IMG/VR virus record: IMGVR_UViG_2537561978_000005
Length of the DNA: 64,000 nt
Direction: 5' to 3' (one strand)
From: a virus
Taxonomy: Duplodnaviria; Heunggongvirae; Uroviricota; Caudoviricetes
Shown: positions 10,251 to 40,958 of the stretch, one piece after another
Layout: the number at the start of each line of letters is the position of its first letter
Position numbering within the stretch: the stretch's first letter is position 1
Notes under the pieces: generated by a model
Seen by the model: the letters and a program-made list of their open reading frames with translations, nothing else
Told to the model about the DNA's origin: nothing
The model's database searches: none
Program-made: the position numbers and the translations under genes

Positions 10251-10352
10251 CTCGTGTGCTCGTTATGTGTACGCAATTATAGGTTTTAATGATGCTGAAT
10301 ACCACTTCTTGGTGCCTTAAATCCTCGAGATGCAGTCTTGCAATTGCTGGGA

Positions 10353-10775: not shown

Positions 10776-10909
10776 TCGCGTACCTAAAAAGAGAATTATA
10801 ACCTCATCTTATCTTCAAGTGAGTAACCGCGTCTAATGGGAGGAATCATTTAAATGGCCAGGGCGATATAGATCCAGTCATGCCTCTCTATGGTTTCTCT
10901 GAAAACAAA

Positions 10910-11299
10910 TCATATAGCAGGACTATCATCAAATTCACCGCCCCTGGCGTCATTGATAATGTGGGTGATCACACCAAAAACAGCATTACTACCCGTGTAA
11001 CCATCGTCATCTACTGGTAACGCCTCTTTCTTCCCGGTGCTTAAATCCTCCAGGTGCTGGCGCGGATACTTCCGGTATCTTTTTACGCGATATTCTCCCT
11101 CCATAGCGCACACAAGCAGCGAACCATCAACTGGAGTAAGCGAAGAATCAACCACCAGCAAAGCACCCTGCAATATTCCCTCACGGTGATGGCTGTCTGC
11201 CGCCCGCATGAAGTATGTCGCTGATGGATGCCTGATTAGTTGCTGATCAAGAGAAATTCGGCTTTCAACATAGTCCGCCGCAGGAGAAGGGAAGCCCAT
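10910..11299 (-). CDS. humD: UmuD'-like protein (HumD), S24 peptidase fold
   Basis: 129 aa; LLVVDSSLTPVDGSLLVCAMEGEYRVKRY resembles UmuD/LexA C-terminal domain. Confidence 0.7.
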   Translation of the reverse strand: MGFPSPAADYVESRISLDQQLIRHPSATYFMRAADSHHREGILQGALLVVDSSLTPVDGSLLVCAMEGEYRVKRYRKYPRQHLEDLSTGKKEALPVDDDGYTGSNAVFGVITHIINDARGGEFDDSPAI

Positions 11300-11546
11300 A
11301 GCGTTTTCACCTCAATAATACTGTTCATTTATACAGTATACATTAAAGAGACACATTTGGTGCAAACGCGTTACGTACATCAACCACCGCAGATGATTTT
11401 GTGCGCTTTGCTACTATTCATCACCAACGAATCAGCGTAACCTCGTTGCCCGGATTAGAGAAATGCAAAACGATAATAAAGGCTAAATCGAGGTAGAAAA
11501 CACATTGTTTAAGGCCACTAATTGTGACCTCAAAGGGGAGAGATGC

Positions 11547-12098
11547 TTATTGGCTATGGCTAAAAATCAAATGAGACACTTCATGTGGTTGTAGCTCGTC
11601 AAGATCCGGGGCCACAAAACCTTTTCCGAAAGACTTCACAAGTGATTCACCAGCCGCATCATTGTCACCTATTACGCGAAAGTCATACGGCAGCATCGCA
11701 AGTTGACGGCGTAATCCTGCGGAGAAAGTTGAACCTAACAGCGCCCACGAATTGCCGCCCGCGTTGTGTACAGCTGCGCTCTTAAAAATAGACTCAGTTA
11801 TCCATATTGGGCCATCTTTTAAAGGAAGATAGGTTCCCCAAAGTAACTGTCTGCCGTGTGATCGCGTGAAATACCGGGCCATCTTCGGATTGCTATGCTG
11901 CTTAGGTGCACCTGGTCTATATGTCTGATACCCAGCCAACATCCCATCAAACCTGTAGAGAGGGAATGTAACTACTCCTTCGCTTTCATCGATCCACTGT
12001 CTATATGGGTGTATATCATGGCGGTAGTTGCGAGTTAGCAAATGAGCTTCCAGCTTTCCAAATTTTGTCATATTCCGTTCTTCCTGCATACTGGGCAT
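11547..12098 (-). CDS. hypothetical protein with TOPRIM-like motifs
   Basis: 183 aa; IWITESIFKSAAV (conserved E) and RVIGDNDAAGE (DxD-AG) resemble TOPRIM signature; unverified. Confidence 0.4.
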   Translation of the reverse strand: MPSMQEERNMTKFGKLEAHLLTRNYRHDIHPYRQWIDESEGVVTFPLYRFDGMLAGYQTYRPGAPKQHSNPKMARYFTRSHGRQLLWGTYLPLKDGPIWITESIFKSAAVHNAGGNSWALLGSTFSAGLRRQLAMLPYDFRVIGDNDAAGESLVKSFGKGFVAPDLDELQPHEVSHLIFSHSQ

Positions 12099-24526: not shown

Positions 24527-24670
24527 AACTCACCTGCACACCGTCAGGCCCAACGCAAATAAATGAAACATCCCGCTCTTGGTGTTTCAGTGAAATAGCT
24601 CATTTTTAGCTTGGAAGCAACTTGATTATGAGCTAAGCCTGACATACACTTCAGCGAGAAAATGATCAAG

Positions 24671-24716
24671 TTAAAGACACAAAAGCTCTGTTTTAACAGA
24701 GCTTTTGTGTCTTTAA
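24671..24716. repeat. perfect 46-bp palindrome (22-bp arms) TTAAAGACACAAAAGCTCTGTT|TTAACAGAGCTTTTGTGTCTTTAA
   Basis: read directly; lies in AT-rich intergenic region before the AT-rich cassette; no flanking T-run. Confidence 0.85.
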
Positions 24717-24850
24717 AACATAGATATCATGCCATATATAGTGCCAAAATTAGTTTTAGACACTATATATATTATAAAGGTAAAAACCGCTTCTACTTTT
24801 AACATCCACAGAAAAAGAAAGCGGTTATAGATAAGGGAAAAGGAGGGGTT

Positions 24851-25156
24851 ATGCTCTATGCGGTTCCTCAGCAAGCTTCTGATTCTTTGAAGTTAATCAA
24901 GACTGTACTTCAGCTTATAGCATCTCAACAAGAAGTGTCACAGCAGTTAAAGTTACGGGTTTATGAGGTGATCAGAGAAGCCTCAAACTTAAGTGTAGAT
25001 AAAGGTGATCAATTACAGATTCCTTCTCACAGAGAGTCCATCTCGCTCGCGGTAGAGATACGCCACACTAAGGCGCTCGCCCAGGTGCTAACCAAAGTAA
25101 CTAGCGAAGATATGTTAGAACCCGTAATGGCCCGGAATGTATTAGAGTACATTTAA
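24851..25156 (+). CDS. hypothetical small helical protein (first gene of AT-rich cassette)
   Basis: 101 aa; GGAGGGG RBS; stop overlaps next start (TAATG). Confidence 0.5.
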   Translation: MLYAVPQQASDSLKLIKTVLQLIASQQEVSQQLKLRVYEVIREASNLSVDKGDQLQIPSHRESISLAVEIRHTKALAQVLTKVTSEDMLEPVMARNVLEYI

Positions 25157-26229
25157 TGCTTGCATTTACACAACTTACATTAGTTCGAAATAAGCTAAGG
25201 GAGATATCAGAATCTCCCTATTTTTCTAAAGACATGCATGAATATCTTGCTGTTCTACAAGAAGCGGTAGATAAGCTCTATGAAAACCATGTGAATGTTG
25301 CTGATAAAATAATTGCGGATTGTACTTTTTTTATCACCGATGCAGTTAATTTTTTCACTGGCAGTACTACAAAGAAAATTCCCTACGAGATTGTTTATTG
25401 CTTAAATGATGCCTGTAAAAAATGGATAAGTGAAAAAACACTTATAACCACAGCCCTATCTCCAGATATGCATGGGTTTTATTTTAAGTCTGTAAACAAG
25501 AATTTGTATTCTTTATTTGATGAAGTTTTAAATGTCAAATTCGAGGTCGAATTAATTCAGATTTCATTACCTGAAATGTACAGAAGACGACCATTATGCT
25601 CTATACCTTTATATCACGAATTGGGACATTTCGTTGATATTAGCAAAGGTATTTCTGAGCTTGCCTGTCTTAACTATCGTTCCAAGGACAAAGGCACACT
25701 TCCAGGACCAGAATGGAGTAATCTACCTGATGTTATTTGGATAAATCATTGCAGAGAATATTTTGCAGATCTATTTAGTGCCCAATTTATTGGAAAAAGT
25801 GGGGTAGATTTCTTATACAAATTAGCTGGCTCTCATCCTGCAAGCTATACTCACCCATCCACAGAAGATAGAGTTAAAATTGTAAGCGACTTTTTGAACA
25901 AAGTGGAAAATCCAGTTGTTGGCATGTTCAATGCTGTGATATCAGCCTTACATAAGGGTGGGCAGATTATTTCTCCTTGTTTGACATTGCCGACACCTTT
26001 GCTTGATGTGAAATCAGCTTTTGATAATGTGCGTCCTTTTGTTATTCGCGACCACAATGAAATGCATGCTTTTATTAACAGCAGCTGGCAGTACTTATGC
26101 TCTGAATGGGAAAAACCTACGGGTATATGGTCTGGGTTGTCAAAAGAAGCCATAGAAAAAACTATAAATGATTTGGTTGAAAAATCGATTCGAAACGTAA
26201 TGATTCTTGAAAAATGGAGTGCACAATGA
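25156..26229 (+). CDS. ImmA/IrrE-type (COG2856-like) HExxH zinc metallopeptidase domain protein
   Basis: 357 aa; LYHELGHFVD followed ~35 aa later by REYFADLFSAQFIG (E-x-FA signature). Confidence 0.55.
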   Translation: MLAFTQLTLVRNKLREISESPYFSKDMHEYLAVLQEAVDKLYENHVNVADKIIADCTFFITDAVNFFTGSTTKKIPYEIVYCLNDACKKWISEKTLITTALSPDMHGFYFKSVNKNLYSLFDEVLNVKFEVELIQISLPEMYRRRPLCSIPLYHELGHFVDISKGISELACLNYRSKDKGTLPGPEWSNLPDVIWINHCREYFADLFSAQFIGKSGVDFLYKLAGSHPASYTHPSTEDRVKIVSDFLNKVENPVVGMFNAVISALHKGGQIISPCLTLPTPLLDVKSAFDNVRPFVIRDHNEMHAFINSSWQYLCSEWEKPTGIWSGLSKEAIEKTINDLVEKSIRNVMILEKWSAQ

Positions 26230-26843
26230 ATCTCCTAAGCAAAGCTGAATTGCTGCAATATTATGAATCAGAAGAACCTGAGTCGTTGTTCATTGAACCT
26301 CTTCTAAATAAAAACCAAATTGGAAACTTCACCATAGACCTTAGACTTGGTTACGATTTTTTAGTGTCTATTATGACAAGGAAGCCGTCAATAGAGTTAA
26401 TTCCCTCAAAAAACAATGATACTCATCAACCAATCAGAACATTTTTCCAGGAAACAAGGAGAGATCTTGGGGATAGGTTCATTGTTTACCCGAATCAAGT
26501 GGTACTGGCAACAACATTAGAATATGTTTGTTTGCCACCAGATTGCTACGCTGATGTATTGTCCAGAAGCAGCTATACAAGGCTTGGTCTTTCATTAAAT
26601 ACCATGATACAACCAGGGTACAGAGGCTGTATATCTTTAGAGTTATTTAATCATGGGAATAGCCCTGTAGAACTTATTGTTGGATCTCGCATATGTCAAA
26701 TTCGTATATTCAAGAATGAAACTGTCGGTGAATACATAAGTCATGAGTCTCACAGGAAATATTTCGGAAATGTGAGGCCAACCGTCTCAGCAGCAGAAAG
26801 TGATAATGAATTAAATATGCTGGAAAAGATCCGACAAAAATGA
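26226..26843 (+). CDS. dCTP deaminase / dUTPase-superfamily protein
   Basis: IDLRLG, SRSSYTRLGL and IQPGYRGCISLELFN match recalled Dcd motifs VDVRLG, GRSSLARLGL, IDPGWSGCIVLEFYN; start coupled (ATGA). Confidence 0.65.
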   Translation: MNLLSKAELLQYYESEEPESLFIEPLLNKNQIGNFTIDLRLGYDFLVSIMTRKPSIELIPSKNNDTHQPIRTFFQETRRDLGDRFIVYPNQVVLATTLEYVCLPPDCYADVLSRSSYTRLGLSLNTMIQPGYRGCISLELFNHGNSPVELIVGSRICQIRIFKNETVGEYISHESHRKYFGNVRPTVSAAESDNELNMLEKIRQK

Positions 26844-26931
26844 AGACTTTAATGCTTTATATTATAAAAACATACAGCGACAACGCAGCCACCAAGATGT
26901 GTTGTCGCCATGTTCAAAGTGCTAACACAGT

Positions 26932-27324
26932 TTAAAAATCACCTGCGCGCTGTTTTTCAAGCACAGATTTAACATTTGGCACTTTCCCTTTAAAAGAATG
27001 GAAAGTGCCACATTTTTCTGTTTTAACTTCGCGCAGAGCTTCGCCATCGGCGTTCTGCCATTGATGGGATAATGTCATATCACCGCGAGAAGGAACATCC
27101 AGCGAGTACAGCGTGTAAGTTCCCCCCATCTCCGCATACTCCTGGAACACATAGCTCATTACGTCAGATTCAGTTTTTCGGTGTACGTTATCAACCTTAT
27201 TCCCATTCAGAAATATGGCATCTGGATAGATTTTTATATCAAACCGACCGCACTTAACTTGTAAATTTCCGGCGCTCGCGATCAAAGGGAAAGACGCCAG
27301 TAAAGCAATTGTCAATCTTTTCAA
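26932..27324 (-). CDS. exported protein (signal peptide), hypothetical
   Basis: 130 aa; MKRLTIALLASFPLIASA signal-like N-terminus. Confidence 0.5.
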   Translation of the reverse strand: MKRLTIALLASFPLIASAGNLQVKCGRFDIKIYPDAIFLNGNKVDNVHRKTESDVMSYVFQEYAEMGGTYTLYSLDVPSRGDMTLSHQWQNADGEALREVKTEKCGTFHSFKGKVPNVKSVLEKQRAGDF

Positions 27325-27344
27325 TTCTGCCTCCGCTGCGTAAC

Positions 27345-27968
27345 TTATTGCCCGTATTTTTTACACCATTGCTCTGCCATTTGTTTGGCTAAAGGCCCGG
27401 CTACTGCACTGTATTCTGCTGTTTTACTTTGCACACATGAAGCAGATGGTTTTTTATTTCGCTGCTCGGTTAGTTTGCGCTCATAAGCCATCATGCTATC
27501 GAACCCGGCAATATCACTTTGGCGAAGCATTCCCTTTTTAACCAAAAATTGCTGCCCCTCGGGCACCAACGCAAGCATAAAAAGTGGTTGCAATAACTCA
27601 CCTAATCCTTGCTGGCGATACACTTCGAATTGCTGCCATCCCTGACTTAATCTGGAAAGAGTATCTTTGGTTGAATAACCTGTTTTTGTTATAGCTTTGT
27701 CCGTCAGATATGCTGTATATGCAAAAACGCAAAAGTCAGTTTTACCAATAAACTGAGTTCCAACAGGCCGTAATGGAATGCCCTCCCTCTTGCAAAAGTC
27801 CATAATGGCCGCTTGTGAATGATCCCCACCAGCATTATTCATAACCTGCTGCCCTGCCCTGAATTGTGCAGGTAACGCAGTTGCATTGGCAGTATTAGCA
27901 GATACGCATCCCAACATAGCCGCGAGCGCGGCCCCTAAAACCCTTAACTTCACTACACCATCCTTCAT
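27345..27968 (-). CDS. exported protein / possible lipoprotein, hypothetical
   Basis: 207 aa; N-terminal signal with AMLGC and ANA cleavage-like motifs. Confidence 0.5.
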   Translation of the reverse strand: MKDGVVKLRVLGAALAAMLGCVSANTANATALPAQFRAGQQVMNNAGGDHSQAAIMDFCKREGIPLRPVGTQFIGKTDFCVFAYTAYLTDKAITKTGYSTKDTLSRLSQGWQQFEVYRQQGLGELLQPLFMLALVPEGQQFLVKKGMLRQSDIAGFDSMMAYERKLTEQRNKKPSASCVQSKTAEYSAVAGPLAKQMAEQWCKKYGQ

Positions 27969-28185
27969 GTAAACAAAATGAAGTTTTATGTTATAAAAAC
28001 AATTAACTACATCAACATGATTTAGGCCAAATTTCGGTCAAAAAATAAAATCCACAAAAAGTGGTTGACACTATTTTGGAAATCACAAACTGCACATAAT
28101 CCATCGCGCTAACGGCTCCCGTTGAAGGTTCTTTTGACGATTAACTTTCAGCCGAAGCGCGGTAGGGAGTCATAACGCCAAAGCA

Positions 28186-28209
28186 GGCCGCCATGTGCGG
28201 CCTTTTTTT
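28186..28209 (+). terminator. intrinsic terminator GGCCGC-CATGT-GCGGCC + T7 without an upstream plus-strand ORF
   Basis: strong canonical terminator; possible 3' end of a small RNA. Confidence 0.6.
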
Positions 28210-28236
28210 GTATCCGTCATCCGTGGAGGAAGGAAA

Positions 28237-28890
28237 ATGGAAAAGATCGCAATATTCAGCCTGACCACCAGCAAGCCTCAAATGCTCACTGCAATACTGA
28301 AAGACGGTGCTCTCATTATTAACGAAGTAAAACCCCTTCCCGCGTCAGCATTGGAGCAAAAGCAAAAAATTCCTCCAGCTATAGCAGCCCTGCGGAAAAG
28401 CAAATTTAAGGTTCTAGTAGACGAAATTACGCCAACGATCTCCGCTGGCACCGGAGCAAGCCAGGTGACTCTCAAGACCCGTCATGCCGATGGTAGAGCA
28501 GCAATCATCGTTGGGATGGAAAGATACAGAGAGTTAAAACTCCAGAAACTATTATCCCTGCCGCAAAATAACAAAGGTGCTTTCGAAATCCCCGACTCTA
28601 TCGTTGATACCGAATACAACGGTAACGGAGAAGAAGTCTACAGGGTGAACTGGCAGGATATCAGGCCGGAGCATATTTTGATGATCCTGTGTTGCTACGC
28701 GACCGTATACCACAACGTTGCCAGTGCAGATTATGTAGAGCAGATGACCGGTACAGTCGAGAAAGAGCAAAAAACAGGCATACTCGCTTCGTTCCTGTCC
28801 ATTATTGGGCATGAAAAAGTTAAAGCAGGCACCTCCCAGCCAAAGTCACTGGCTGGGAAAGAAGTTGATGAAGATACCGTGATACTTTGA
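28237..28890 (+). CDS. hypothetical protein
   Basis: 217 aa from ATG 28237 with GGAGGAAGG RBS. Confidence 0.5.
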   Translation: MEKIAIFSLTTSKPQMLTAILKDGALIINEVKPLPASALEQKQKIPPAIAALRKSKFKVLVDEITPTISAGTGASQVTLKTRHADGRAAIIVGMERYRELKLQKLLSLPQNNKGAFEIPDSIVDTEYNGNGEEVYRVNWQDIRPEHILMILCCYATVYHNVASADYVEQMTGTVEKEQKTGILASFLSIIGHEKVKAGTSQPKSLAGKEVDEDTVIL

Positions 28891-29218
28891 TCACATTAGT
28901 AGCTTTGTTAACTCCCTCAATACCAGGTAGAAGAGTAACAAAAATATTGACGCGAGTATTTGAGTGGTCAATGAAGCGTTCATAAACAGATCAATTAGCA
29001 TTAATAATTCGAATATAACATCCATGTCATTCACTCCGTTTAATTTTTAATCTAATGCCAGCAAATGAAGCTGGCCCCCGCACAAAGATTAATGAAAGTC
29101 ACTTGTCACCAGTGAGGGGATTTATGAACCACATCCCCCTGAACTGGTGGCCTGTCTGTTTCTCACATTTCACACCCTGCATACAGTTTCCCCCAGGTTA
29201 TGACTGAGAGGCTTTGTT

Positions 29219-29548
29219 ATGGGCTATAGCAGACTCGACGACAGGTACATTGAAGACGATATTTTTCGTGCGCTGTTTCACCAGGAAATGATTAAGCGGG
29301 TATCGGAGTATCACTCTGATAATTTCCAGTACACGATAAAGATTGATGAAGTATATCGTTCAGACCTTGCAGCCTACCGGGCGTATGGCAATGCAGATTT
29401 GCGCTGGGTATTCCGGGTGCTGGTGGGCCATGAGTCAGAAATGGAAGAAATGCCCGCCGGGACCACGTTAACTCTTCCTGATGTGGCATGGCTGAGGAAC
29501 AAGATCCGTGATTACGCGAGCGCGGAACCGGAGATAGAAAATGCCTGA
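29219..29548 (+). CDS. hypothetical protein
   Basis: 109-aa ORF; overlaps next gene start. Confidence 0.45.
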   Translation: MGYSRLDDRYIEDDIFRALFHQEMIKRVSEYHSDNFQYTIKIDEVYRSDLAAYRAYGNADLRWVFRVLVGHESEMEEMPAGTTLTLPDVAWLRNKIRDYASAEPEIENA

Positions 29549-30734
29549 TTTCCTGAAAAACCAGGACGGGCGCTATATCACTGACGGCCTGTCCTCTAAG
29601 GACTTCACGCGTTTATTCGACCTTATCAGGAAAGAACAAACCCGTAAGCGCCGACAAGCTCACCGGACGCTGACGCCAGGTAGACTGAGGAACAAATCCG
29701 CCGAAGATATTCTCAAGTTAGGGAAGAAAAAAGGCGGCACGTTCTTCACGCGAGACGACCTGAAAGGTTTCGAAAAGCTACGGAGTAAAACACGCGAAAA
29801 ATATGACAGCAAGACGGCTGGCATCACATACGCCCAGCTGGTGGCATCCAGCCAGGCAATCGATATTAAGCGTGCAAATAACGCCGTGGATGACGGATCT
29901 GGTATCAAAAGAGCTACACCCGTATCTCTTCGCCACAACGTGATTAATATCCGCGTAGAAGCATCGGATATATCCGTCCACCAGCACCATATCGTCCGGA
30001 TACGCTTTGAAGAATGGGATCAGATGGTTGATGACATCGCAGAAGACGATAAATCAGCTCTGAAAATCACTAAATCACTGTGCGCCGGGCGAGTGTCTTT
30101 CGATTGTGACTGTGGTCGTCATCAATACTGGTATCGTTACATCGCTACTGCGGGTAACTTTGCCCTGGCCCCGCCAAAAGAATACGCCTATCCAAAAGTT
30201 CGTAACCCTAAGCTACAAGGCGTCGCCTGTAAACACGTGATCCACTCAATGACGCGGTTACAGTCCGCAAGTTGGCAAATGAGTATTGCTCGTGCACTAC
30301 AAAAGGCTGCAACGCAAATTGCATTTGGTGACGATCGCCGACGTACAACCAAACACTTCTCAAAAGAAGACGAGAAGGAGTTTAATCGCAATCGTAGCAG
30401 TAAAACGAACGTTGAAGCCGCCAAACGCGAATGGAGACTCTATCAGAAGCGCCAGGCAGCTTTAAGTACAAAACTGGCAAAGGACAACGGCAAGATCGAC
30501 AAACTACGTGACCAATTGACCAAGGCCAGAAAGTTGTCAGATGCACAGAAAAAACGGGCGGCAGCAAAAGAAGCGGCCTTGCAACGTGAGAAACAGAAAA
30601 ACAAGGAGCTTCAGCAACGCCTTGCCGATCAGTTCGCACTGAAGAAGCAGGCGTTCATTGATGCGCTTGTCATGGCTGGAACACCACCAGCACAAGCTGA
30701 AAAAATGTTCATGGAGTATGTAAAAAAAGCATAA
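29541..30734 (+). CDS. hypothetical protein with SWIM-like CxC...CxH zinc motif and basic coiled-coil C-terminus
   Basis: 397 aa; FDCDCGRHQYW ... GVACKHV. Confidence 0.5.
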   Translation: MPDFLKNQDGRYITDGLSSKDFTRLFDLIRKEQTRKRRQAHRTLTPGRLRNKSAEDILKLGKKKGGTFFTRDDLKGFEKLRSKTREKYDSKTAGITYAQLVASSQAIDIKRANNAVDDGSGIKRATPVSLRHNVINIRVEASDISVHQHHIVRIRFEEWDQMVDDIAEDDKSALKITKSLCAGRVSFDCDCGRHQYWYRYIATAGNFALAPPKEYAYPKVRNPKLQGVACKHVIHSMTRLQSASWQMSIARALQKAATQIAFGDDRRRTTKHFSKEDEKEFNRNRSSKTNVEAAKREWRLYQKRQAALSTKLAKDNGKIDKLRDQLTKARKLSDAQKKRAAAKEAALQREKQKNKELQQRLADQFALKKQAFIDALVMAGTPPAQAEKMFMEYVKKA

Positions 30735-30767
30735 ACCACACATAGCCTAGCTGCCTAGGCTAGGCTT

Positions 30768-31496
30768 TCATCTTTTTGAAAAATCAATTTCCGTTTTATC
30801 AAATAAATTTGAAATATCAGCAACCAATTTATTAAAATCATGATCGCCATTATAAAGCGAAGTCTTCTTTATTGCCATTACAAAATCATATAACTTTTCT
30901 GGGGAGTCAATACCAACCCCTCTACTTTTAAAAAGCTCAATGATAACTCCAACATCATCATATAATAATTTTATTGCCGCCATAATCTCTTTTTGCTGCC
31001 TAAGCAATCTCTCAAGTTCATTTTTATTTTCATCCATAATTCTTTTGTTGAATTGTGTATCATTAATACTTTTTATTATTTCAGTCTCTTTTATTTGCAA
31101 CGCCTTTCTTTTATTTTGATCCATGTCGGCATCCAAATACCTTATCTCTGTATATATTTTACTTGTTAGCTTTGATACGCAAAGAGTGACAATCGGAGCT
31201 GCAATTGATGCAATAATTCCAAAAATAAATGGCAAGCAAAAATGATAAAACCAAGGAGACAAAACGCCTTCATAAACTAGAGGAATCTTACCTCCAACAA
31301 ATGTTACAGATAAAGTATATAGGATATCATCCTTTGACTTCATCAATATTAGTATATCTTTCCAATTAATAATTAGAAAAGAAATGAATATATATGCAAA
31401 CACTTTATTAAAAAGCTTGTCTTTTATGGCATCTCCAAAAGATACTTTGATTAGATCATTTTCAGTCAATTTTTCTGTTGATGAATCTGTATTCAT
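30768..31496 (-). CDS. AT-rich membrane protein (two predicted TM helices + coiled coil), hypothetical
   Basis: 242 aa; very low GC; hydrophobic segments VFAYIFISFLIINW and FCLPFIFGIIASIAAPIVTLCV. Confidence 0.55.
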   Translation of the reverse strand: MNTDSSTEKLTENDLIKVSFGDAIKDKLFNKVFAYIFISFLIINWKDILILMKSKDDILYTLSVTFVGGKIPLVYEGVLSPWFYHFCLPFIFGIIASIAAPIVTLCVSKLTSKIYTEIRYLDADMDQNKRKALQIKETEIIKSINDTQFNKRIMDENKNELERLLRQQKEIMAAIKLLYDDVGVIIELFKSRGVGIDSPEKLYDFVMAIKKTSLYNGDHDFNKLVADISNLFDKTEIDFSKR

Positions 31497-31500
31497 ATAA

Positions 31501-31623
31501 ACTACCGTGATTTCTAATATCTATTTTATGAAAATTCATTTCCGGTTCGTTATCGAACATCGGTTCGACCGCACGCAGTGCGGCCTCATAATCTTGTTCT
31601 GTACGGATAGATTTAATGTTCAT
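31501..31623 (-). pseudogene. possible N-terminal remnant of a HigA-type antitoxin
   Basis: MNIKSIRTEQDYEAALRAVEPMFDNEPE resembles N-termini of HigA-family antitoxins, then runs out of frame into AT-rich gene; no clear RBS. Confidence 0.25.
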
Positions 31624-31636
31624 TAATTACAAAGGA

Positions 31637-31662
31637 AAGCCCACTTGCTAAGTGGGCTTTTT
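31637..31662 (+). terminator. intrinsic terminator AAGCCCACTT-loop-AAGTGGGCTT + T5
   Basis: 10-bp stem; partial U-run on minus strand too. Confidence 0.55.
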
Positions 31663-31679
31663 GTATGTGTTTTACTATA

Positions 31680-32018
31680 TCAGGCTGCTTTTTTATTCAG
31701 GTTCCGCTGAGAAATAAATTTTTCAGCAGTATTGATACGACTTAACTCTTCCTGAACGCGCATATCATTTTCGACTTCCCACAGGTCTACTGCGGTCTGA
31801 AGATTAATCCAAAAATCTACAGAAGTATCGAATGCTTTTGCCAGGCGATATGCCATATCCATCGTTAGCTTACGATTATTATTAACAAGAGCACTTACGG
31901 TGTTACGATGAACATGAAGTATTTCTGCTAACTCGTTGATCTTCAGCTCTAACGGCTCCAGGTATTCGTACAGCAGGATATCACCTACGGTCGTCGGTTT
32001 TCTGGTTGCCTGTTTCAT
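31680..32018 (-). CDS. higA: HigA-family antitoxin (XRE helix-turn-helix)
   Basis: 112 aa; TVGDILLYEYLEPLELKINELAEILHVHRNTVSALVNNNRKLTMDMAYRLAKAFDTSVDFWINLQ. Confidence 0.8.
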   Translation of the reverse strand: MKQATRKPTTVGDILLYEYLEPLELKINELAEILHVHRNTVSALVNNNRKLTMDMAYRLAKAFDTSVDFWINLQTAVDLWEVENDMRVQEELSRINTAEKFISQRNLNKKAA

Positions 32019-32088
32019 TTTTTGCCCTTACTAGCGTGCGTATTAAGTGGACTCTGGTCAGAACCCGGTCCGTAACCGGGTATCTGTT

Positions 32089-32391
32089 TTAGTATTTGTG
32101 AGGGTCGAGATACAAGTCCTCGGCCTTTCCGTTAACCCACCTAAAAATTAACCTATATTGCTTATTCACCCTTACTGATGAATAGCCATTTAGCTTCCCT
32201 GACAGTTCCTCATACCGATTACCTGGTGGTGATCTTAAATCCTTACAGGTAGTTGCGGCATTGATAATGTCCAACTTCCGTGACAATGTCATATGAATAT
32301 CAGGAGGTATCTTTCTATGTGGTGTTGAAAATTCAAAAAAATCATCAAGCCACGCATCCCTGAAATCCTTTATGTTAATTTTTTTGGTCAT
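32089..32391 (-). CDS. higB: HigB-family toxin (RelE/ParE superfamily)
   Basis: 100 aa; PPGNRYEELSGKLNGYSSVRVNKQYRLIFRW pattern; toxin-first gene order. Confidence 0.8.
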   Translation of the reverse strand: MTKKINIKDFRDAWLDDFFEFSTPHRKIPPDIHMTLSRKLDIINAATTCKDLRSPPGNRYEELSGKLNGYSSVRVNKQYRLIFRWVNGKAEDLYLDPHKY

Positions 32392-32553
32392 TAGTCATTT
32401 GATCCTCCGTGATGATTACCGAATGCCATAACTATAGCGCACCGTTGCACTGTGCGCAAGTGCATTTTATGAATTCCCCCTCCTTCATCCAAAATCACAA
32501 TCTCCAGAAAATCTTCCTTTCGATACCTGACAGATCGACCTTTGAGGATGCTT

Positions 32554-33345
32554 ATGGGCCGTTTTGACGAATGGTTTGCTGACGATGCAAACCTGGCAAG
32601 TAAGGAGTCAGAACATGACAGCACGCAGAGAGAAACGCCAGCGCCGATTGAAGCGAATGCAGGAGGCGCGCCGGAACATGGCAATACCGGTTCGGATTCA
32701 TTCAGCATTCTGGAAGAGCAACCCGCCGCCAAAGCTGATAGCCATGATAATTTTGCTGATAGCAACGGTGGCCTTACTCCGGATGCTGGCGAATCAGATA
32801 TAGCCATACTTCCATCTTCCCTGGCTGGCAGAGAACCGACTCCACAGTTAAAAGCACGCTATAACGGGCATAAAGCCTTTAACGACCAAATCCGCGCAGA
32901 CTGGATGCTGATTATTGAATCCAGCCCAGACGCGTTTCAGGCTCTCTTATATCGACCAGATGTTGGCACATATGGGGTAGTCAGCGACGAAACAGGAGAA
33001 GAGTCATTCACCGAACTGGATAACAACCAACGCGAACTGACTTACCAGGAACCTGAAATCGTTTATGTGCTGGATAACCCTGACGGGCGTGACTCTTTCC
33101 ATGCGATTGACGCAGACGGTGAGCAGGATGGCTTAACCGATGATGTTCTGATTCTGCGTATTGCAGCAAATAACGTCCCCGTCGGCTCAATTCTTGAATG
33201 GAATGAAGAGATGGTAAACGGCGTAGCGCGCCGCTGGTGGTACGTGCACCGTATTTTTAGCTACGGCACACAGCATGTTGGTTCGCTTTACTACTGCATA
33301 CCTGCCAGGAATTTTGATACGACTCAAAACGGAGTGATCGAATGA
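32554..33345 (+). CDS. hypothetical acidic protein (first gene of a plus-strand operon)
   Basis: ORF 32542..33345; ATG at 32554 has GAGG 6 nt upstream; stop overlaps next start. Confidence 0.5.
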   Translation: MGRFDEWFADDANLASKESEHDSTQRETPAPIEANAGGAPEHGNTGSDSFSILEEQPAAKADSHDNFADSNGGLTPDAGESDIAILPSSLAGREPTPQLKARYNGHKAFNDQIRADWMLIIESSPDAFQALLYRPDVGTYGVVSDETGEESFTELDNNQRELTYQEPEIVYVLDNPDGRDSFHAIDADGEQDGLTDDVLILRIAANNVPVGSILEWNEEMVNGVARRWWYVHRIFSYGTQHVGSLYYCIPARNFDTTQNGVIE

Positions 33346-34109
33346 CTTCAAATAAAACCCTCCTGGCGCGAACAGGTGAATGGCAAACCTCACGCACAGG
33401 AAAATTCCAGACCACGGGCTTTGAAAACGTGGATAACGCGTTTGCGACGCTAATCAGCAACATTTTTTCTGATATCTTACTGGTGGCCCCCGCGCCGGAA
33501 GAAAAACGCTTTGCGTCATTCCTGAATCGTCCACCAGCAGAGCGTGTCTATGTGGCCCGTTTCGACAATGCGATCGAGTTTCTTAAAGCAGTTCGTCGCG
33601 CAAATGCCGGGCAAGGGAGAAAACCTGAAAACCAGAACATTAACCGGGATGCTCTCCCCCTGGTCAATATCTCACGCAATATGGATATCAATTATATCAA
33701 CGATGATCAGCAGATTGACCGCAAAAAAGTAGCCAGTTTTTGCGAACCGGATACCGGAATGCCTTTAGCAGAACTGGAATACACCCAGGCCATTCTGACG
33801 TATGACGTTACGTTAATGGCAACTGATAAAGCGACCATGAGTCTGATGTGTAATTCGCTGGGCGCACGGCTTCGCCTGATGACAGGTACACAATTTGAAG
33901 CAACCACTCACCTTGTTCGTGTCCCGGTCCCGCTGATTTGCTCGATACAGGATGCCAAAGAAGTCGGCTTTACGGATGTTTCAGCACCAATTGGAGAAGA
34001 GCGTATTTATGCCACACAAGCGCCGATAAGTGTGATTGCAGACGTGATCACAGCATGGGAGTTGGACGCAAAACGTATTATTACCGAAACCTCGATATCT
34101 ATGGGGTGA
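33342..34109 (+). CDS. hypothetical protein (probable virion/baseplate-associated)
   Basis: 255 aa, coupled in operon with gpV-like spike. Confidence 0.45.
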   Translation: MTSNKTLLARTGEWQTSRTGKFQTTGFENVDNAFATLISNIFSDILLVAPAPEEKRFASFLNRPPAERVYVARFDNAIEFLKAVRRANAGQGRKPENQNINRDALPLVNISRNMDINYINDDQQIDRKKVASFCEPDTGMPLAELEYTQAILTYDVTLMATDKATMSLMCNSLGARLRLMTGTQFEATTHLVRVPVPLICSIQDAKEVGFTDVSAPIGEERIYATQAPISVIADVITAWELDAKRIITETSISMG

Positions 34110-34112
34110 TAA

Positions 34113-35093
34113 GTGGCCCAGGAGTTACAACAATATTTTCTACAGTCAGTGCTCATTAACGATAACAAAGTGCCACGAGACTGGATTTTTACCGCAGTAT
34201 ATGTAGAAAAAACCAGCCTCAAAGCCCCTTTGCTAAAACTGGAAATTCATGACGCTACCGGCACCGTAATTGATGACTGGAAAGCCAAATACGGTGCATC
34301 GCTGGTGGCTGAAATGGGCGATCCAAACGGTAATGCCGGCACTTTTAAAACAGATTTCTTTGTTACGTCTGCAATGCTGGCTGGTGATGTTGTTACCGTT
34401 ATTGCTGTCAGTGAAGACGTGCGCAGGTTTAAGATCCCCTCCCCGCGCACAAATTTACATACCAACAAAACACCAGACGCTATATTCAAGGCATATTCCG
34501 GCAAGCTTAAAATTACCAGCAGCGTGCTAAAACGCGCAGTTACATATCATCTGAATGCCGGTGACAAACCGTCAAAAATGCTTTCGGAGATAGCGCGAGA
34601 CAAAGGTGCATTATGTTGGGTATGCCGGGGGGAATTTAACTTTTACACCCTGGCTGATCTGATGAAGCAAACGCCATCATTTACCTACGAGGGGAATAAC
34701 CCTAAAGCAGAATACACTTTGTCCAAAATGCGCCTACTCCAACAGGAACATGCGACAACAGCAAAGAATCAATATCGTTTTGTTGGGTATTCCATGACCG
34801 ATGGCTACGTCGAATATGGCGATAGCTCACTCCCAGTGCGTTATATATCCGACTCTGATATGGAAACTCTTCGTAATATGCAGCTGTCTCTCGTCCCCAA
34901 AATGGATATAGAAGTCGCAGGCAATCCTGATATAAAACCGGGGATGGTGATAGAGATTATCGTATACCGCTATGACCAGGAAAACCGCATTGATGAATCA
35001 ATGCCCCGTAAGCTGATAGTAAAAAATGTTGCGCACTTTGAAGACCGCGTAGGCTACACAACACGAATGATATTGGGAGTGCCGAACAAATGA
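34113..35093 (+). CDS. hypothetical protein, possible baseplate hub
   Basis: 326 aa; directly upstream of and overlapping gpV-like spike gene; assignment by position only. Confidence 0.35.
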   Translation: MAQELQQYFLQSVLINDNKVPRDWIFTAVYVEKTSLKAPLLKLEIHDATGTVIDDWKAKYGASLVAEMGDPNGNAGTFKTDFFVTSAMLAGDVVTVIAVSEDVRRFKIPSPRTNLHTNKTPDAIFKAYSGKLKITSSVLKRAVTYHLNAGDKPSKMLSEIARDKGALCWVCRGEFNFYTLADLMKQTPSFTYEGNNPKAEYTLSKMRLLQQEHATTAKNQYRFVGYSMTDGYVEYGDSSLPVRYISDSDMETLRNMQLSLVPKMDIEVAGNPDIKPGMVIEIIVYRYDQENRIDESMPRKLIVKNVAHFEDRVGYTTRMILGVPNK

Positions 35094-35743
35094 AGCGTAG
35101 AGCGCAAATTGTTGGAACTGTGCACCCGGCAGGGCTTATGCGTGCTCAAGTCCGTGTTTTACCTGACTGGAATGGCGTTCCTGATGACGATCTACCCTGG
35201 GCGGAATACCTGTTACCCATCGGAAACGCTTTTGTACCCACAGTCAAAGGTGACCTGGTCTGGGTAGAGTTTCCTTATTTAGATGTTAACGGTCGAATAG
35301 ACACCAGACGCCCAATGATAGTTGGTGCCGCTCAGGATGCACCGGGAGGAATTCCAAACGTTGCACCAGAAGCATCTGGCAAAGGCAACGGCTGGACGCC
35401 GCCGGAAGTAGATGGAGCACCTCCCCGCCCCCAAATCTCAGCAACGAAAGACTTCGTTATTCACCGCAACAATATTCTTGAAGTACGAACTGCTGGTGGC
35501 GGCTATGAAATTGCCAATACGGCAGCAGGCTCAAGGATTGGCATGAATGAGTCCGGGCAGATATATATCATTGGTCCGGCTGATGTAATCGTGAATGCAG
35601 GAGGGAGTGTTAACGTCAAATCAACCAACAACATCAATGTTAAAGGGGAAAATATTGCTGTCACCGCTAACGGAGACATAGCTTTCAAGGCAGGAGGAAC
35701 CTTTCAGGCCACTGCTGGCAACTTCGATTTCAAGAAAGGATAG
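35090..35743 (+). CDS. baseplate central spike (gpV/gp45-like)
   Basis: 217 aa; N-terminal OB-fold-like LMRAQVRVLPDW ... GDLVWVEF ... MIVGA and Gly-rich beta-helical C-terminus. Confidence 0.5.
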   Translation: MKRRAQIVGTVHPAGLMRAQVRVLPDWNGVPDDDLPWAEYLLPIGNAFVPTVKGDLVWVEFPYLDVNGRIDTRRPMIVGAAQDAPGGIPNVAPEASGKGNGWTPPEVDGAPPRPQISATKDFVIHRNNILEVRTAGGGYEIANTAAGSRIGMNESGQIYIIGPADVIVNAGGSVNVKSTNNINVKGENIAVTANGDIAFKAGGTFQATAGNFDFKKG

Positions 35744-35754
35744 AAAATGCACCC

Positions 35755-35795
35755 ATTTGTGTTAGATAATTAATATGTATTTTCTAACACAAATG
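35755..35795. promoter_or_regulatory. inverted-repeat operator-like element CATTTGTGTTAGA(N15)TCTAACACAAATG upstream of hrdC
   Basis: 13-bp inverted arms containing the TCTAACA core. Confidence 0.45.
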
Positions 35796-35802
35796 GTGAG
35801 AC

Positions 35803-36708
35803 ATGAGATCAGTCGCTTTCAAAAATATCTTCATCTATCGTCTTTCACGCGAAGTTAGCTGGGATACTGCAGAAGTAAATGCAGCCCTTAGCAAGTTTGT
35901 GTTTACCCCATGCGGTTCTCAGGATATGGCTAAAGCTGGTTGGACCTCCGTTCTTGGTGACAACCTCACCCATGAATACCAGGGTTTTCTTCTGATACAG
36001 CATAAACGAGAGGAAAAAATCCTACCTTCTCAAGTGCTCAAAGAAGAGTTACAGAAAAAAATCCTGACACTTGAAGAAGAGCAAGACAGAAAGCTGAAGA
36101 AGACCGAAAAAGATTCGCTGAAGGATGAAGTGCTTCACTCTCTTCTTCCTCGTGCTTTCACGAGAAAATCACTCGCCAAAATCCTGATCGACCGCAGCAA
36201 CCATCTGGTATTCGTTGAGGCAAGCAGCGCCAAAAAGGCAGAGGACCAGCTGGCTTTATTGCGAAAATCGCTCGGCAGCCTGCCTGTCATTCCATTCACA
36301 CCACGCGAACCGCTGGAAATTACAATGACCGAGTGGTTTAAAAACGGCTTCCCTGCCGGATTTACAGCAGGTGAAGACGCCACATTAAAGGGTCTGCTCG
36401 ATAATGGTGGTGCCGTTCGCTGCAACAAAGTTGATCTACAGTCCGACGAGATTATGTCTCACATTGAGGCGGGGAAAGTAGCTACGACCGTTGCAATTAA
36501 CTGGATGGACCGCGCGTCGTTCAGAGTCAACGATGATATGAGTATCAAAGCCCTGACATTCTGTGATGATCTCTATGACCAGAACGACGATATCGACCGG
36601 GAGGATGTAGCACAACGATTTGATGCTGATTTCGTGCTCTTTACGGGCGAATTATCTGCACTGTTTAACGCGCTGGTGGAGGCCATTGGCGGTGAAGCAG
36701 AACGTTAA
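35803..36708 (+). CDS. hrdC: RdgC-like recombination-associated protein
   Basis: 301 aa; long colinear matches to recalled E. coli RdgC ([66 protein letters not shown]); hrdC-dmt order as in P1. Confidence 0.85.
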
Positions 36709-38980
36709 CCTTAGATATGGTTCAGTTTGCAGTGGAATTGAAGCAGCGAGCATTGCCTGGGAACCGTTGGGTATGCGTCCGGCGTGGTTTGCTGAAATCG
36801 AGCCTTTTCCATCTGCCGTTCTTGCGCACCGCTGGCCCCATGTCGCCAACCTTGGCGATATGACAAAACTTGCCAAAAAAGTCCTGGCTGGGGAAATCGA
36901 ATCCCCTGATGTGCTCGTCGGGGGAACACCTTGTCAGGCATTCAGTATCGCTGGATTACGTGGTGGGCTTGATGATGAGCGTGGCGCGCTAACTTTAAAG
37001 TATGTGGAGCTTGCAAATGCAATTGACGACAAACGGGCTGAGTCATTTCTCAAACCAGCCGTTATCGTCTGGGAAAATGTCCCAGGAGTCTTGTCATCGG
37101 CAGATAACGCCTTCGGATGTTTCCTTGCCGGATTGGCTGGAGAAGATGCGCCATTCGAACCAGGTGCTCGACCTGAATCACGAAAAAGTAACGCGTTCTG
37201 GCGGTGGGATGTCAAAACCAGTTGCCATGCTCCAAAGTGGCCGCAGTGTGGTTGTATTTATGGACCGCAGCGAAAAGTGGCCTGGAGAATCCTTGATGCC
37301 CAATACTTCGGAGTGGCACAACGACGCCGACGCGTGTTTGTTGTCGCAAGTGCTCGAACAGACCTCGATCCCGCAACGATACTTTTTGAGTTCGAAGGCG
37401 TGCGCCGGGATATTGCGCCGAGCCGAAAAAAGAAGGAAATCGCTTCCGCCATTATTGCAAATGGCGCTGCAATCAGTGGCGAAAGCCTAAATCCATGCCT
37501 ACACGCTGACATTCCACCCGGTATGAAATCGACGAAAGCCGTAAACGCTTTCAGGATGGCAGCATTTGGGGAATATATTGACGATGAAACCGCATCGACA
37601 GTAAAGGCAAGAGATTTTAAAGATGCCACTGACCTTACCGTTTTTAGCAGCACAGGAGCAGGTTTTTGGTCAGAAGGGCATGGTACATTGCGGGCACGTG
37701 AGCAAGAAAGCCATGAGCATCTTGTTACATTAGCTTTTCCTGAGCGTATGAGCGGTACACAACATGCTGCAACTAAGAATACTTCACCATCTCTAATGGC
37801 TCAAAATCCAACAGCCGTTTGCTATGAAGTAAGAAACGCAGAAGTAGCTGTCCGCCGTCTTACCCCTGTCGAATGTGAAAGGCTGCAAGGTTTTCCTGAT
37901 GGGCATACGTTGATCCCTACGGAAAAGCGTAAAACAATTTCCTCAGATGAACTGGCATACCTTCGCAATCACTATCCAGATTTAAGCGAAGAAGAAGCCG
38001 CGATGCTCGCTGCTGACGGGCCGCGTTACAAAGCGATTGGCAACAGCATGGCAGTTCCTGTTATGCAATGGATTGGGTGTCGCATTCTTGCGACTGTGGA
38101 AGCTAAACAGCCAAAAACAATAAATACCATTACCTACACAAGAAAACTCCGGACTCCGGATGAATATGAGCGTCCGATCTTCAAATGGGTAGGCGGTAAA
38201 TTCTCAGAGTTGCCTACAGTGCTTGAGCATCTACCACACGGCAAGCGGTTAATAGAACCGTTCGTTGGTGGCGGTTCTGTATTTACGAATGCAGGATTTC
38301 GCCACAACCTGCTTAATGATATTAACGGTGACCTGATTAACTTCTATCAGACATTGCAGCGAGAAGGACATTCGCTCGTCACGCTGTCATATAGTTTTTT
38401 CCAAAATTACAACAACGCTGACGCTTACCTCGAAGTGCGTGAGGCATTTAACAGAGGAAAGTATGACCAGCTACATCATGCTGCCGCCTTTTTGTACCTT
38501 AATCGGCACTGTTTTAATGGCGTAACGCGGTACAACCAAAATGGCGAGTTCAACGTGGGGTATGGCAAATACAAAGCGCCCTACTTCCCACATGCAGAGA
38601 TGGAGGCATTTTTGGCTGATGACGTACTCAAAAACACGTCCTTTGTATCAGGTGACTTTGCTGGCGTCATCGAGGCGGCTGGTGAAGGCGATGTGATTTT
38701 TTGCGATCCGCCGTATGAACCGCTGCCGGATACAGAAGGGTTTACCAGTTATTCAGGAAATAGCTTCCGTTTCGACGAACAGAAACGGCTGGTATCTCTA
38801 TTGGTGGAAGCCCACCAGCGCGGCGCTAAGGTAGTGATAACAAATAGTGGTGCGCCAAACATCCGTGAACTATATGAAGGAAACGGGTTTAAAGTACATC
38901 ATATGGCAGCCAGACGGTCGGTTTCCTGCAAGGCGTCAACACGTGTAGTTGCTAACGATATAATTGCAATAATGAAGTAA
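36692..38980 (+). CDS. dmt: bifunctional DNA methyltransferase: N-terminal C5-cytosine MTase fused to C-terminal Dam-like N6-adenine MTase
   Basis: [12 protein letters not shown] (PCQ) and ENVPGV motifs N-terminally; DPPY motif C-terminally; likely GTG start 36692 (GGAGG 9 nt upstream) rather than track start 36620. Confidence 0.85.
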
Positions 38981-38982
38981 AA

Positions 38983-39011
38983 AACGCCGCAGTAGCGGCG
39001 TTTACTTTTTT
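38983..39011. terminator. bidirectional intrinsic terminator AACGCCGC-AGTA-GCGGCGTT
   Basis: 8-bp stem between convergent dmt and glnS, T-runs on both sides. Confidence 0.6.
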
Positions 39012-39028
39012 ATGTGGCGAAATACCTA

Positions 39029-40690
39029 TTAACCTAACTTCGCCCAGGTATCACGCAGCCCAACGGTGCGGTTAAATACCGGTTTTTCCGCCGTAGAATG
39101 GCGGCTATCGAGGCAGAAGTAACCTTCACGCTCAAACTGGAATGCTTTACCCGCAACCGCATCTTTCAGCGACGGTTCAGCAAAGCCCTGTTTGATCACC
39201 AGCGATTCCGGGTTAATCACCGACAGGAAATCATCCGCAGCACCAGGGTTCGGCACGCTGAACAGACGGTCGTACAGACGGATTTCAACCGGCAGCGCAT
39301 GTGCCGCGCTCACCCAGTGAATAACACCTTTGACTTTACGACCATCTGCCGGATCTTTGCTTAAGGTGTCGGCGTCATAAGTACAGAAGATGGTGGTGAT
39401 ATTGCCTTCGGCATCTTTCTCCACGCGTTCTGCCTTAATGACGTAAGCATTACGCAGACGCACTTCTTTACCCAGCACCAGACGTTTGTACTGCTTGTTA
39501 GCTTCTTCGCGGAAATCGGCGCGATCGATCCAAATCTCACCGCTAAACGGCACCTGGCGGCTACCCATTTCCGGTTTGTTTGGATGGTTCGGCATGGTGA
39601 CCATTTCGCCTTCGCCCTGGTAGTTTTCGATAACCAGTTTCACCGGATCGATAACCGCCATTGCGCGCGGGGCATTTTCGTTGAGATCTTCACGGATGCA
39701 GGATTCCAGCGACGCCATCTCAATGGTGTTGTCCTGCTTGGTCACGCCGATGCGTTTGCAGAACTCACGAATAGAAGCCGCAGTGTAACCACGACGACGC
39801 AGACCGGAAATGGTCGGCATACGCGGGTCATCCCAGCCTTCAACGTGCTTGTCGGTTACCAGCTGGTTCAGCTTACGCTTGGACATCACGGTGTATTCCA
39901 GATTCAGGCGCGAGAATTCGTACTGGCGCGGATGAACAGGAATGGTGATGTTGTCCAGTACCCAGTCGTACAGACGACGGTTGTCCTGGAACTCCAGCGT
40001 GCACAGAGAGTGCGTAATGCCTTCCAGCGCATCGCTGATGCAGTGGGTGAAGTCGTACATCGGGTAGATGCACCACTTGTTGCCAGTCTGGTGGTGTTCA
40101 GCAAACTTAATACGGTACAGCACCGGATCGCGCATGACGATAAACGGCGACGCCATGTCGATTTTCGCACGCAGGCAGGCTTTACCTTCTTCAAAACCAC
40201 CAGTACGCATTTTCTCGAACAGCGCCAGGTTCTCTTCAACGCTGCGGGCGCGGTACGGGCTGTTTTTACCCGGCTGAGTCAGGGTGCCACGATATTCACG
40301 GATCTGTTCCGGCGTCAGTTCATCGACATACGCCAAACCTTTGTTGATTAGTTCAACAGCATAGGCATGGAGTTTGTCAAAATAATCGGAGGAGTAACGG
40401 ATGTTTCCAGACCAGTGAAAACCTAACCATTCAACGTCGTTTTTAATCGACTCGACGTACTCGATATCTTCTTTTACCGGGTTAGTGTCGTCGAAACGCA
40501 GGTTGCACTGGCCTTTATAGTCCTGGGCGATCCCGAAGTTCAGGCAGATAGATTTCGCATGACCAATATGCAGATAGCCATTCGGTTCCGGCGGAAAACG
40601 GGTATGTACTGTGGTGTGCTTACCACTGGCCAGATCTTCATCGATGATCTGACGAATAAAGTTAGTCGGGCGGGCTTCTGCCTCACTCAT
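39029..40690 (-). CDS. glnS: glutaminyl-tRNA synthetase (GlnRS), full length
   Basis: 553 aa essentially colinear with recalled E. coli GlnS incl. HIGH motif PNGYLHIGH and VMSKR motif; flanked by phage/plasmid genes, not chromosomal neighbours. Confidence 0.95.
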
Positions 40691-40839
40691 TGTGGATTCC
40701 TCAAAGCGTAAACAACGTATAACGGCGTATGATCTTATAAGCAGAATAGGCTGACAACCACTAGTTGGTTAGAAATTACTTTCTATAGTTGTTTCAATAA
40801 TGAGCTTTTTCATCAAGCCCACTTCTGCTCATAAGTAAA

Positions 40840-40920
40840 CCAGTGCTAAATGGTACACAATTGGCACCAAAAAGGATGTAAAGGTGCACCAAATCGGTGC
40901 TACATTGGTACACCTTTGGT
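40840..40920. repeat. cluster of short GGTACAC/GGTGCACC/GGCACC repeats (centromere- or operator-like)
   Basis: read directly between glnS and parG-like gene; similar motifs recur upstream of parA. Confidence 0.3.
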
Positions 40921-40958
40921 TCAATAATTTTTAAGTTCTAAAACCAACCTGAAAGACA

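Follow-up and report, generated by a model that had tools for sequence, protein, structure and literature searches.

A dCTP deaminase-fold protein encoded with an M48-like peptidase and a small helical protein on a D6-like phage-plasmid: a candidate anti-phage module

Results

A three-gene cassette on a phage-plasmid

The DNA analysed here (the window) is a 64,000-nucleotide stretch of the viral record IMGVR_UViG_2537561978_000005. It belongs to a D6-like, P1-related phage-plasmid; positions 27000–45000 align with Escherichia phage D6 at 97% identity, with 86% of the segment covered. Our subject is a cassette of three plus-strand genes, designated A, B and C, which an earlier note on this DNA had singled out as a coupled module. 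Gene A (24851–25156, with AGGAGG at 24841–24846) encodes a helical protein of 101 amino acids, gene B (25156–26229) a predicted soluble zinc metallopeptidase of 357 amino acids resembling the M48 gluzincins, and gene C (26226–26843) a 205-amino acid protein of the Dcd/dUTPase fold, a predicted dCTP deaminase and the proposed effector. The start of gene C at the ATG at 26226 agrees with RefSeq and with the homologues; a further in-frame ATG lies upstream at 26214. Translational coupling of the three reading frames can be read directly off the sequence (TAATG at 25154–25158 and ATGA at 26226–26229), and all of the protein motifs that had been quoted, LYHELGHFVD, REYFADLFSAQFIG, IDLRLG, SRSSYTRLGL and IQPGYRGCISLELFN, were found. 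The cassette is also as AT-rich as had been claimed, with a GC fraction of 0.374 over the three genes (0.33–0.39 across the cassette) relative to 0.465 for the whole window, which is about the lowest 1% among 2-kb windows.

Gene C belongs to the dCTP deaminase family

Gene C matched the Pfam DCD family PF22769 with an E value of 1.3e-30 (107 bits, against a cutoff of 27), and the whole protein scored 113.3 bits against the curated equivalog model TIGR02274, whose cutoff is 92.8. It aligned with solved dCTP deaminases (4xjc, 1.8e-16; the E. coli enzyme 1xs1, 7.9e-15), it matched the dCTP deaminase family of PHROGs, and its RefSeq name is “dcd: dCTP deaminase”. The catalytic residues S115, R119 and E139 (S111, R115 and E138 in E. 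coli Dcd) were kept in 51 of 51 subfamily members, as were R114 (E. coli R110) and the equivalent of E. coli C134. The region of E. coli D128 and the 121–126 loop in this 51-member alignment was borne out by the HMMER alignment with solved Dcd enzymes. Additional invariant residues (Q31, RR78-79, Q91 and R184-P185) set the subfamily apart, as does a conserved extension of about 12 residues at the C-terminus. By sequence, C is a distinct subfamily of Dcd/dUTPase-fold dCTP deaminases with its catalytic Ser, Arg and Glu intact, and deaminase activity is predicted. The family matches and the alignment with solved structures uphold the view that C has a Dcd fold with intact catalytic residues and is not the housekeeping dUTPase of the element, which is encoded separately at 6800–7294. 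That dUTPase is genuine (E value of 2e-25 to solved dUTPases), and this canonical trimeric enzyme could shield the element from dUTP made by gene C.

Gene B defines a small family of M48-like peptidases

The protein encoded by gene B carries the motifs H154-E-L-G-H158, E201-Y-F-A-D205 and T-H233-P-S-T-E-D-R239, followed by a C-terminal N-D-L-V-E-K-S-I-R-N. The corresponding patterns LYHELGHF, EYFADLF, (T/S)HPxTxxR and NxLxEKSIxN were invariant in 58 of 59 homologues, the exception being frameshifted, and the residues that are hallmarks of M48 peptidases (H154, E155, H158, E201, H233, P234 and R239) were invariant in 58–59 of the 59 sequences. When members were scanned singly, 29 of 77 matched Peptidase_M48 and 21 of 77 matched the anthrax lethal factor family. 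B had originally been described as an ImmA/IrrE-type HExxH peptidase; the zinc peptidase with an invariant active site stands, but the family does not. With the M78 (ImmA/IrrE) model, 0 of 77 members matched at E ≤ 0.1, which ruled out this identity; genuine M78 proteins encoded by neighbouring genes were detected with E values down to 1.8e-21.

The AlphaFold2 model of B had a predicted local distance difference test (pLDDT) score of 95.5. It begins with a three-helix bundle, continues into a mixed catalytic core and ends in a helical domain; it is consistent with M48 cores. Foldseek searches of the model against the PDB and against the viral models of BFVD returned nothing significant, and the B profile found no match among PDB sequences. 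When 1.84 billion cluster representatives were searched exhaustively with HMMER, only 287 relatives were recovered, nearly all of 330–400 amino acids. There is no curated family for B in PADLOC-DB v2 or NCBIfam, and RefSeq annotates the protein as hypothetical. As judged from its sequence, B resembles the M48 peptidases yet forms a small family of its own, with predicted protease activity.

Gene A is small and fast-evolving

Gene A has no Pfam, NCBIfam or PADLOC family, and none outside PHROGs; RefSeq calls it hypothetical, and few relatives are detectable by sequence. Weak matches to Csx1 and Crn1 (E values of 0.015 and 0.03) were treated as noise, and no helix-turn-helix family matched A above noise. 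Iterated profiles yielded two A families, one proteobacterial (30 loci) and one from Bacteroidota (23 loci), which are joined by a full-length profile-profile match with an E value of 3.8e-4. The N-terminus is kept across phyla, reading M-L-A/Y-A in one family and M-L/Y-Y/L-S/A in the other; here it is M-L-Y-A (24851–24865). Conservation of the first four residues in a fast-evolving protein suggests a recognition or degradation signal. By analogy, we propose that A is an antitoxin-like inhibitor or adaptor, and possibly a substrate of the peptidase.

The same trio recurs across bacteria

A genome scan with the B alignment identified 50 loci, which belong to Bacteroidota and to Alpha-, Beta-, Gamma- and Deltaproteobacteria. 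A homologue of C overlapped or abutted the end of B in 48 of them; of the remaining two, one lies on a contig that ends first and the other is a distant Prevotellaceae locus with other genes downstream. On the opposite side, a gene of about 100 amino acids abuts the start of B almost everywhere, and an A-type gene lay upstream in 53/53 loci with upstream sequence. Look-ups starting from C returned the same trio in 4/4 cases, with B disrupted in one. The coupled module is real, and the occurrence of the same trio in more than 50 unrelated genomes makes it more than a product of chance. Identity between phyla is 40–60% for C, 25–40% for B and 19–30% or undetectable for A, and falling conservation in this order is a gradient typical of immune modules.

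In the Prevotellaceae locus (L057, 9417–15974), a distant A-type gene and a B gene with intact HELGH are followed by genes for a 1271-amino acid STAND/NACHT NTPase and a TIR-domain protein. This arrangement could be an effector swap or merely an adjacent system.

The cassette carries its own regulatory region

The cassette's own regulatory region lies at 24620–24850 on the plus strand, and these 230 bp move together with the three genes. Homology with a chromosomal copy in Proteus, whose gene A is 67% identical, begins at about 24620. Alignment of the window, IMG/VR and Proteus copies revealed conserved upstream blocks consisting of CTTGATTA..TGACATACACT, the position of a palindrome, ATATATAGT / ACTATATAT and the ribosome-binding site. 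The palindrome (24671–24716) has arms of 22 nt (24671–24692 and 24695–24716) that are 100% complementary around a non-symmetric centre of 2 nt, and its right end overlaps a −35-like TTAAAA. That hexamer begins a plus-strand promoter-like site (24713–24742; −35 TTAAAA, 18-nt spacer, −10 TATAGT; 9/12 matches). Sites with 9/12 matches are not enriched relative to shuffled sequences; the −10 TATAGT sits in a block that is identical in Proteus. Over the −10 region lies a second inverted repeat, ATATATAGTGCCAAAA / TTTAGACACTATATAT (24734–24770, 88%), a candidate operator whose outer 9-nt arms, ATATATAGT / ACTATATAT, are kept in Proteus while its centre differs.

The palindrome had been read as the upstream border of the cassette. 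It is present, with perfect 22-nt arms, but it does not mark a border and instead belongs to the regulatory region, Proteus having a 24+2+24 palindrome of other sequence in the same position. The two palindromic elements flank the promoter, and they are conserved or co-varying when the copy on the E. coli plasmid is compared with that on the Proteus chromosome. Perfect palindromes with 22-nt arms also occur upstream of A in two loci from Flavobacteriia (L040 and L045). Long perfect palindromes of differing sequence (arms of 22–24 nt, centres of 0–2 nt) were seen before A in several unrelated copies, including one at 5480–5600 of locus L003. They are not universal, as only about 6 of 50 loci exceeded shuffled controls. 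The sequence makes the palindrome at 24671–24716 a candidate operator; a hairpin is less likely. A plain intrinsic terminator is unlikely given the 2-nt loop, the lack of a U-run and the overlap with a conserved promoter. Because the spacer is tiny and the elements overlap the −35 and −10, we infer operators for a dimeric repressor and not a terminator, with the A protein as one candidate binder.

The cassette is an accessory of D6-like plasmids

Twelve plasmids from E. coli and Salmonella, about 90–170 kb in size, carry the whole 2.5-kb cassette region at 89–100% identity. The cassette occurred in 8 of 5426 complete E. coli genomes, on D6-like plasmids every time. Phage D6 itself and 50,697 phage records lack the cassette at both the DNA and the protein level, and only three loci matched among the 2.9 million viral contigs of IMG/VR. 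This distribution supports the contention that C is not an ordinary phage nucleotide-metabolism gene, and it leaves a phage origin of the cassette unsupported. Between its icd-ant operon and mat, D6 instead carries a pmgF-like gene, orf80 and a superimmunity gene resembling simB, and other D6-like plasmids are without the ant region as well as without the cassette. The cassette thus occupies an accessory slot whose content varies. Its right edge is near 26930, as cassette-free D6-like plasmids match the query from 26930 onward only. On balance it is slightly more probable than not, taken jointly with a role in immunity or abortive infection, that the span of about 24620–26930 is an autonomous, horizontally mobile three-gene unit.

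Beyond the three genes, a minus-strand terminator-like hairpin (26875–26894) lies between gene C and the 130-amino acid minus-strand gene that converges on it. This gene is one of two converging genes on the minus strand at 26932–27968, of 130 and 207 amino acids, whose N-termini, judged by eye, are hydrophobic and signal-peptide-like. The pair stands in place of the simB-like superimmunity gene of D6 and occurs in D6-like plasmids with or without the cassette. A second AT-rich patch at about 30400–32500, with GC down to 0.29, contains in an identical plasmid a hypothetical gene, a HigB-family toxin gene and a helix-turn-helix antitoxin gene, and is probably another accessory insert.

Defence genes and Bub operons surround the trio

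Consistent with the suspected link to defence, copies of the trio in other genomes lie in defence islands. One is next to QatABCD and an integrase, and another next to an integrase and a type I restriction-modification system. Elsewhere the neighbours include AbiE, AbiV, mad2 and methyltransferases; CBASS cyclases, TIR effectors, RmrA and CapH/CapP; and toxin-antitoxin clusters and a type II restriction-modification system.

Unexpectedly, the commonest neighbour was a Bub (6E/DUF6527) ubiquitination-like operon. Of 58 non-redundant loci, 24 had one no more than 10 kb away, usually directly adjacent. These operons encode an E1 (often as a JAB-E1 fusion), DUF6527/BubE and a multi-ubiquitin protein, often with a CapH/CapP pair. 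The adjacency spans two phyla and at least six gene orders. In nine alphaproteobacterial genera the genes run bubAB-bubCD-bubE-A-B-C on one strand; in Chitinophagaceae, A-B-C converges on capP-capH, followed by Bub; and in a third order Bub diverges from capH-capP-A-B-C. The Bub-linked loci include L021, L022, L025–L030 and L043 (about 6900–11650), together with L008, L012, L015, L032, L033, L038, L039, L045–L048, L050, L056 and L064. In the last of these (3652–6413), B is seemingly fragmented and a short ThiF-like E1 gene converges directly on C. The other 34 of the 58 loci, including all of the gammaproteobacterial ones and this window, have no Bub operon nearby. No Bub gene (E1, E2, Ubl or DUF6527) and no CapP gene was found within the window, nor in the Proteus, Dickeya and Aeromonas copies, and the trio therefore appears autonomous in most places. 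The paper that defined Bub reported 544 operons, 31% of them with CapH and CapP, and stated that their targets and role are unknown; it mentions no deaminase.

Discussion

A model for the cassette

Taken as a whole, the sequence evidence somewhat favours the view that the cassette is a module for anti-phage defence or abortive infection that has not been described before, its Dcd-fold deaminase depleting dCTP while a peptidase and a small protein exert control. Phage defence, and the licensing of the deaminase by the peptidase that the earlier note had put forward, we infer from sequence. In this model C, a trimeric effector, would convert dCTP to dUTP, removing a DNA precursor and raising dUTP, so that neither the infecting phage nor the cell could replicate DNA. 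B, as controller, would be a soluble M48-like zinc peptidase that forms a physical unit with C and exerts control by proteolysis. A would be the restraint, a small, fast-evolving helical protein that holds the B-C unit inactive until B removes it and C is released. The trigger might be an infection cue that switches B on. Alternatively, B might keep A short-lived, such that when a phage shuts off host expression A vanishes and C is freed, as in AvcI-AvcD. Transcription would probably be repressed via the two palindromic operators over the promoter.

Full-text literature searches for the trio found no description of it, and the one paper that lists an M48 protease and a dCTP deaminase does so as separate island genes, its deaminase being of the known anti-phage type. 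Several observations weigh against this model. PADLOC-DB v2 contains no model for A, B or C; with no real match there, the trio does not fall under the defence systems catalogued up to 2023. Our neighbour counts come from a survey of loci, without a formal genome-wide background. A natural B-C fusion of 631 amino acids (protein P0306, at 1745–3945 of locus L067), preceded by an A-type gene and found in one lineage on two metagenomic contigs, supports a physical link between B and C, yet it suits a regulatory domain joined to an enzyme equally as well as a protease that cleaves something. The AlphaFold2 model of A, made from a shallow alignment, shows five helices at a pLDDT of 55, and because of this low confidence the role of A rests on position and analogy. 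Finally, the Asp of the dUTPase/Dcd motif (E. coli D128) is replaced by Gln129 in 98% of the C subfamily, and the loop at E. coli Dcd 121–126 is three residues shorter. Because of these two changes the substrate or the regulation of C could differ from those of Dcd; they may alter dTTP feedback or substrate choice.

Alternative explanations

The poor structure of A when modelled alone is also consistent with an antitoxin, and an addiction module that stabilizes the plasmid or island, with C as toxin, A as antitoxin and B as the protease that makes A labile, would leave defence absent or incidental. The translational coupling of the small upstream gene to the rest fits such a tripartite toxin-antitoxin system, as do the palindromic operators over the promoter, which resemble those of autoregulated type II loci, and the setting, a low-copy phage-plasmid with an adjoining HigB/HigA pair and, for other copies, clusters of toxin-antitoxin genes. 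Many loci, however, are chromosomal and lie beside bona fide defence systems and operons regulated by CapH/CapP, and addiction does not exclude defence, as the majority of toxin-antitoxin-like systems found in islands of this kind are defensive. We regard a role chiefly in addiction as unlikely. Routine nucleotide metabolism of a phage or plasmid, in which C supplies dUMP and dTTP for replication of the element and B and A are unrelated neighbours, would account for the RefSeq and PHROGs assignments of C and sits comfortably with a dUTPase on the element. This is highly improbable: the gene is missing from D6 and the phage records and nearly so from viral contigs, C is always tied to B and A, most copies are on bacterial chromosomes, and the host already has a Dcd.

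The Gln129 substitution and the shortened loop of C, together with a B active site that is as strictly conserved as that of C, raise the alternative that C has been retargeted (to another cytosine nucleotide, or to nucleotide binding or signalling) and that B is the real effector protease. The distant Prevotellaceae A-B pair, which has genes for a STAND NTPase and a TIR protein downstream in place of C, hints that A and B can serve other partners. Yet the catalytic Ser, Arg, Glu and Cys of C are invariant and the whole protein exceeds the equivalog cutoff, and we consider retargeting improbable. The recurrent Bub operons, often with CapH/CapP, in both phyla and in at least six gene orders, including the single-strand arrangement in alphaproteobacteria, would be explained if the trio were an arm of Bub pathways, be it effector, target or regulator, with stand-alone copies as remnants or dependent on other host factors; that Bub targets and output are stated to be unknown leaves room for such an arm. 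Against this stand the majority of loci, in which Bub is absent, the silence of the Bub paper on a deaminase and the fact that co-localized defence systems often do not interact, and we think it distinctly unlikely that the trio is such an arm and not an independent system. It is doubtful, though less so, that the trio is both an unrecognized immune module, wielding a Dcd fold as its weapon under a new peptidase family, and a functional partner of Bub as its output, target or co-regulated arm.

Relation to known systems

The closest precedent in chemistry for a nucleotide-depleting module of this kind is the defensive dCTP deaminase (DcdV/AvcD) of “Antiviral defense via nucleotide depletion in bacteria” (Tal et al.), a 576-amino acid protein in which a kinase-like domain at the N-terminus is joined to a domain of the zinc-dependent cytidine-deaminase fold. 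This precedent had been invoked for the cassette; the fusion to a kinase-like domain is as had been stated, but the deaminase has a zinc-dependent cytidine-deaminase fold and is not of C's family. Because of that fold and the kinase-like domain, gene C shares the chemistry of the defensive dCTP deaminase and not its family. The defensive enzyme (Tal et al., Hsueh et al.) and the trio are alike in dCTP depletion, proposed for the trio, in their location in defence islands and in joining a deaminase to a regulatory part. They differ in that the known system is one protein, whereas here a 205-amino acid protein of the metal-free Dcd/dUTPase fold is accompanied by an M48-like peptidase and a third protein. 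The trio would thus work like the defensive dCTP deaminase without being a member, its enzyme fold being unrelated and its control architecture new. Relative to housekeeping Dcd (TIGR02274; 1xs1, 4xjc), C conserves the fold, the catalytic Ser, Arg and Glu, and the RSSxxRLG and GC(I/L)xLE motifs; in contrast, it is only about 30% identical to the aligned E. coli region, and its gene always follows A and B and lies on mobile DNA.

On the peptidase side, B differs from the M48/M56 gluzincins HtpX, BepA and Ste24 and from BlaR1-type sensors in being soluble and in having an N-terminal three-helix bundle and a C-terminal helical domain unseen in solved structures. ImmA/IrrE (M78, COG2856) and CapP resemble the proposed scheme, in which a zinc peptidase would control a response through cleavage of a small partner protein. 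They differ from it in that B lacks any M78 signal and A any helix-turn-helix signature, and in that CapP-like genes are present as separate neighbours. Proteolysis turns a latent module active during infection in Lit, CalpL-CalpT-CalpS, the gasdermin proteases and Craspase, which are alike in concept although their protease families and effectors are unrelated; we know of none among them that controls a nucleotide-pool enzyme. AvcD is reportedly restrained by a labile antitoxin, which parallels the role proposed for A.

Significance

Depleting nucleotides is an established way of countering viruses in organisms from bacteria to humans, as seen with SAMHD1, the defensive dCTP deaminase and dGTPase. 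If our model is correct, dCTP-depletion chemistry has a second origin in the unrelated Dcd/dUTPase fold, and its control is proteolytic, with neither RNA nor a kinase-like domain in that role. The model would also assign a function to two unnamed families: B, with its few hundred clusters, and A, which has no curated model in the libraries searched. The adjacency of the trio to Bub is a testable lead on what ubiquitination-like pathways do, and if the partnership is true, the alphaproteobacterial arrangement would represent one pathway tying ubiquitin-like conjugation to nucleotide-pool control. Finally, the carrier of the cassette is a phage-plasmid of the D6/P1 type found in E. coli and Salmonella, and the cassette may for this reason also influence superinfection and the outcomes of phage therapy in those strains.

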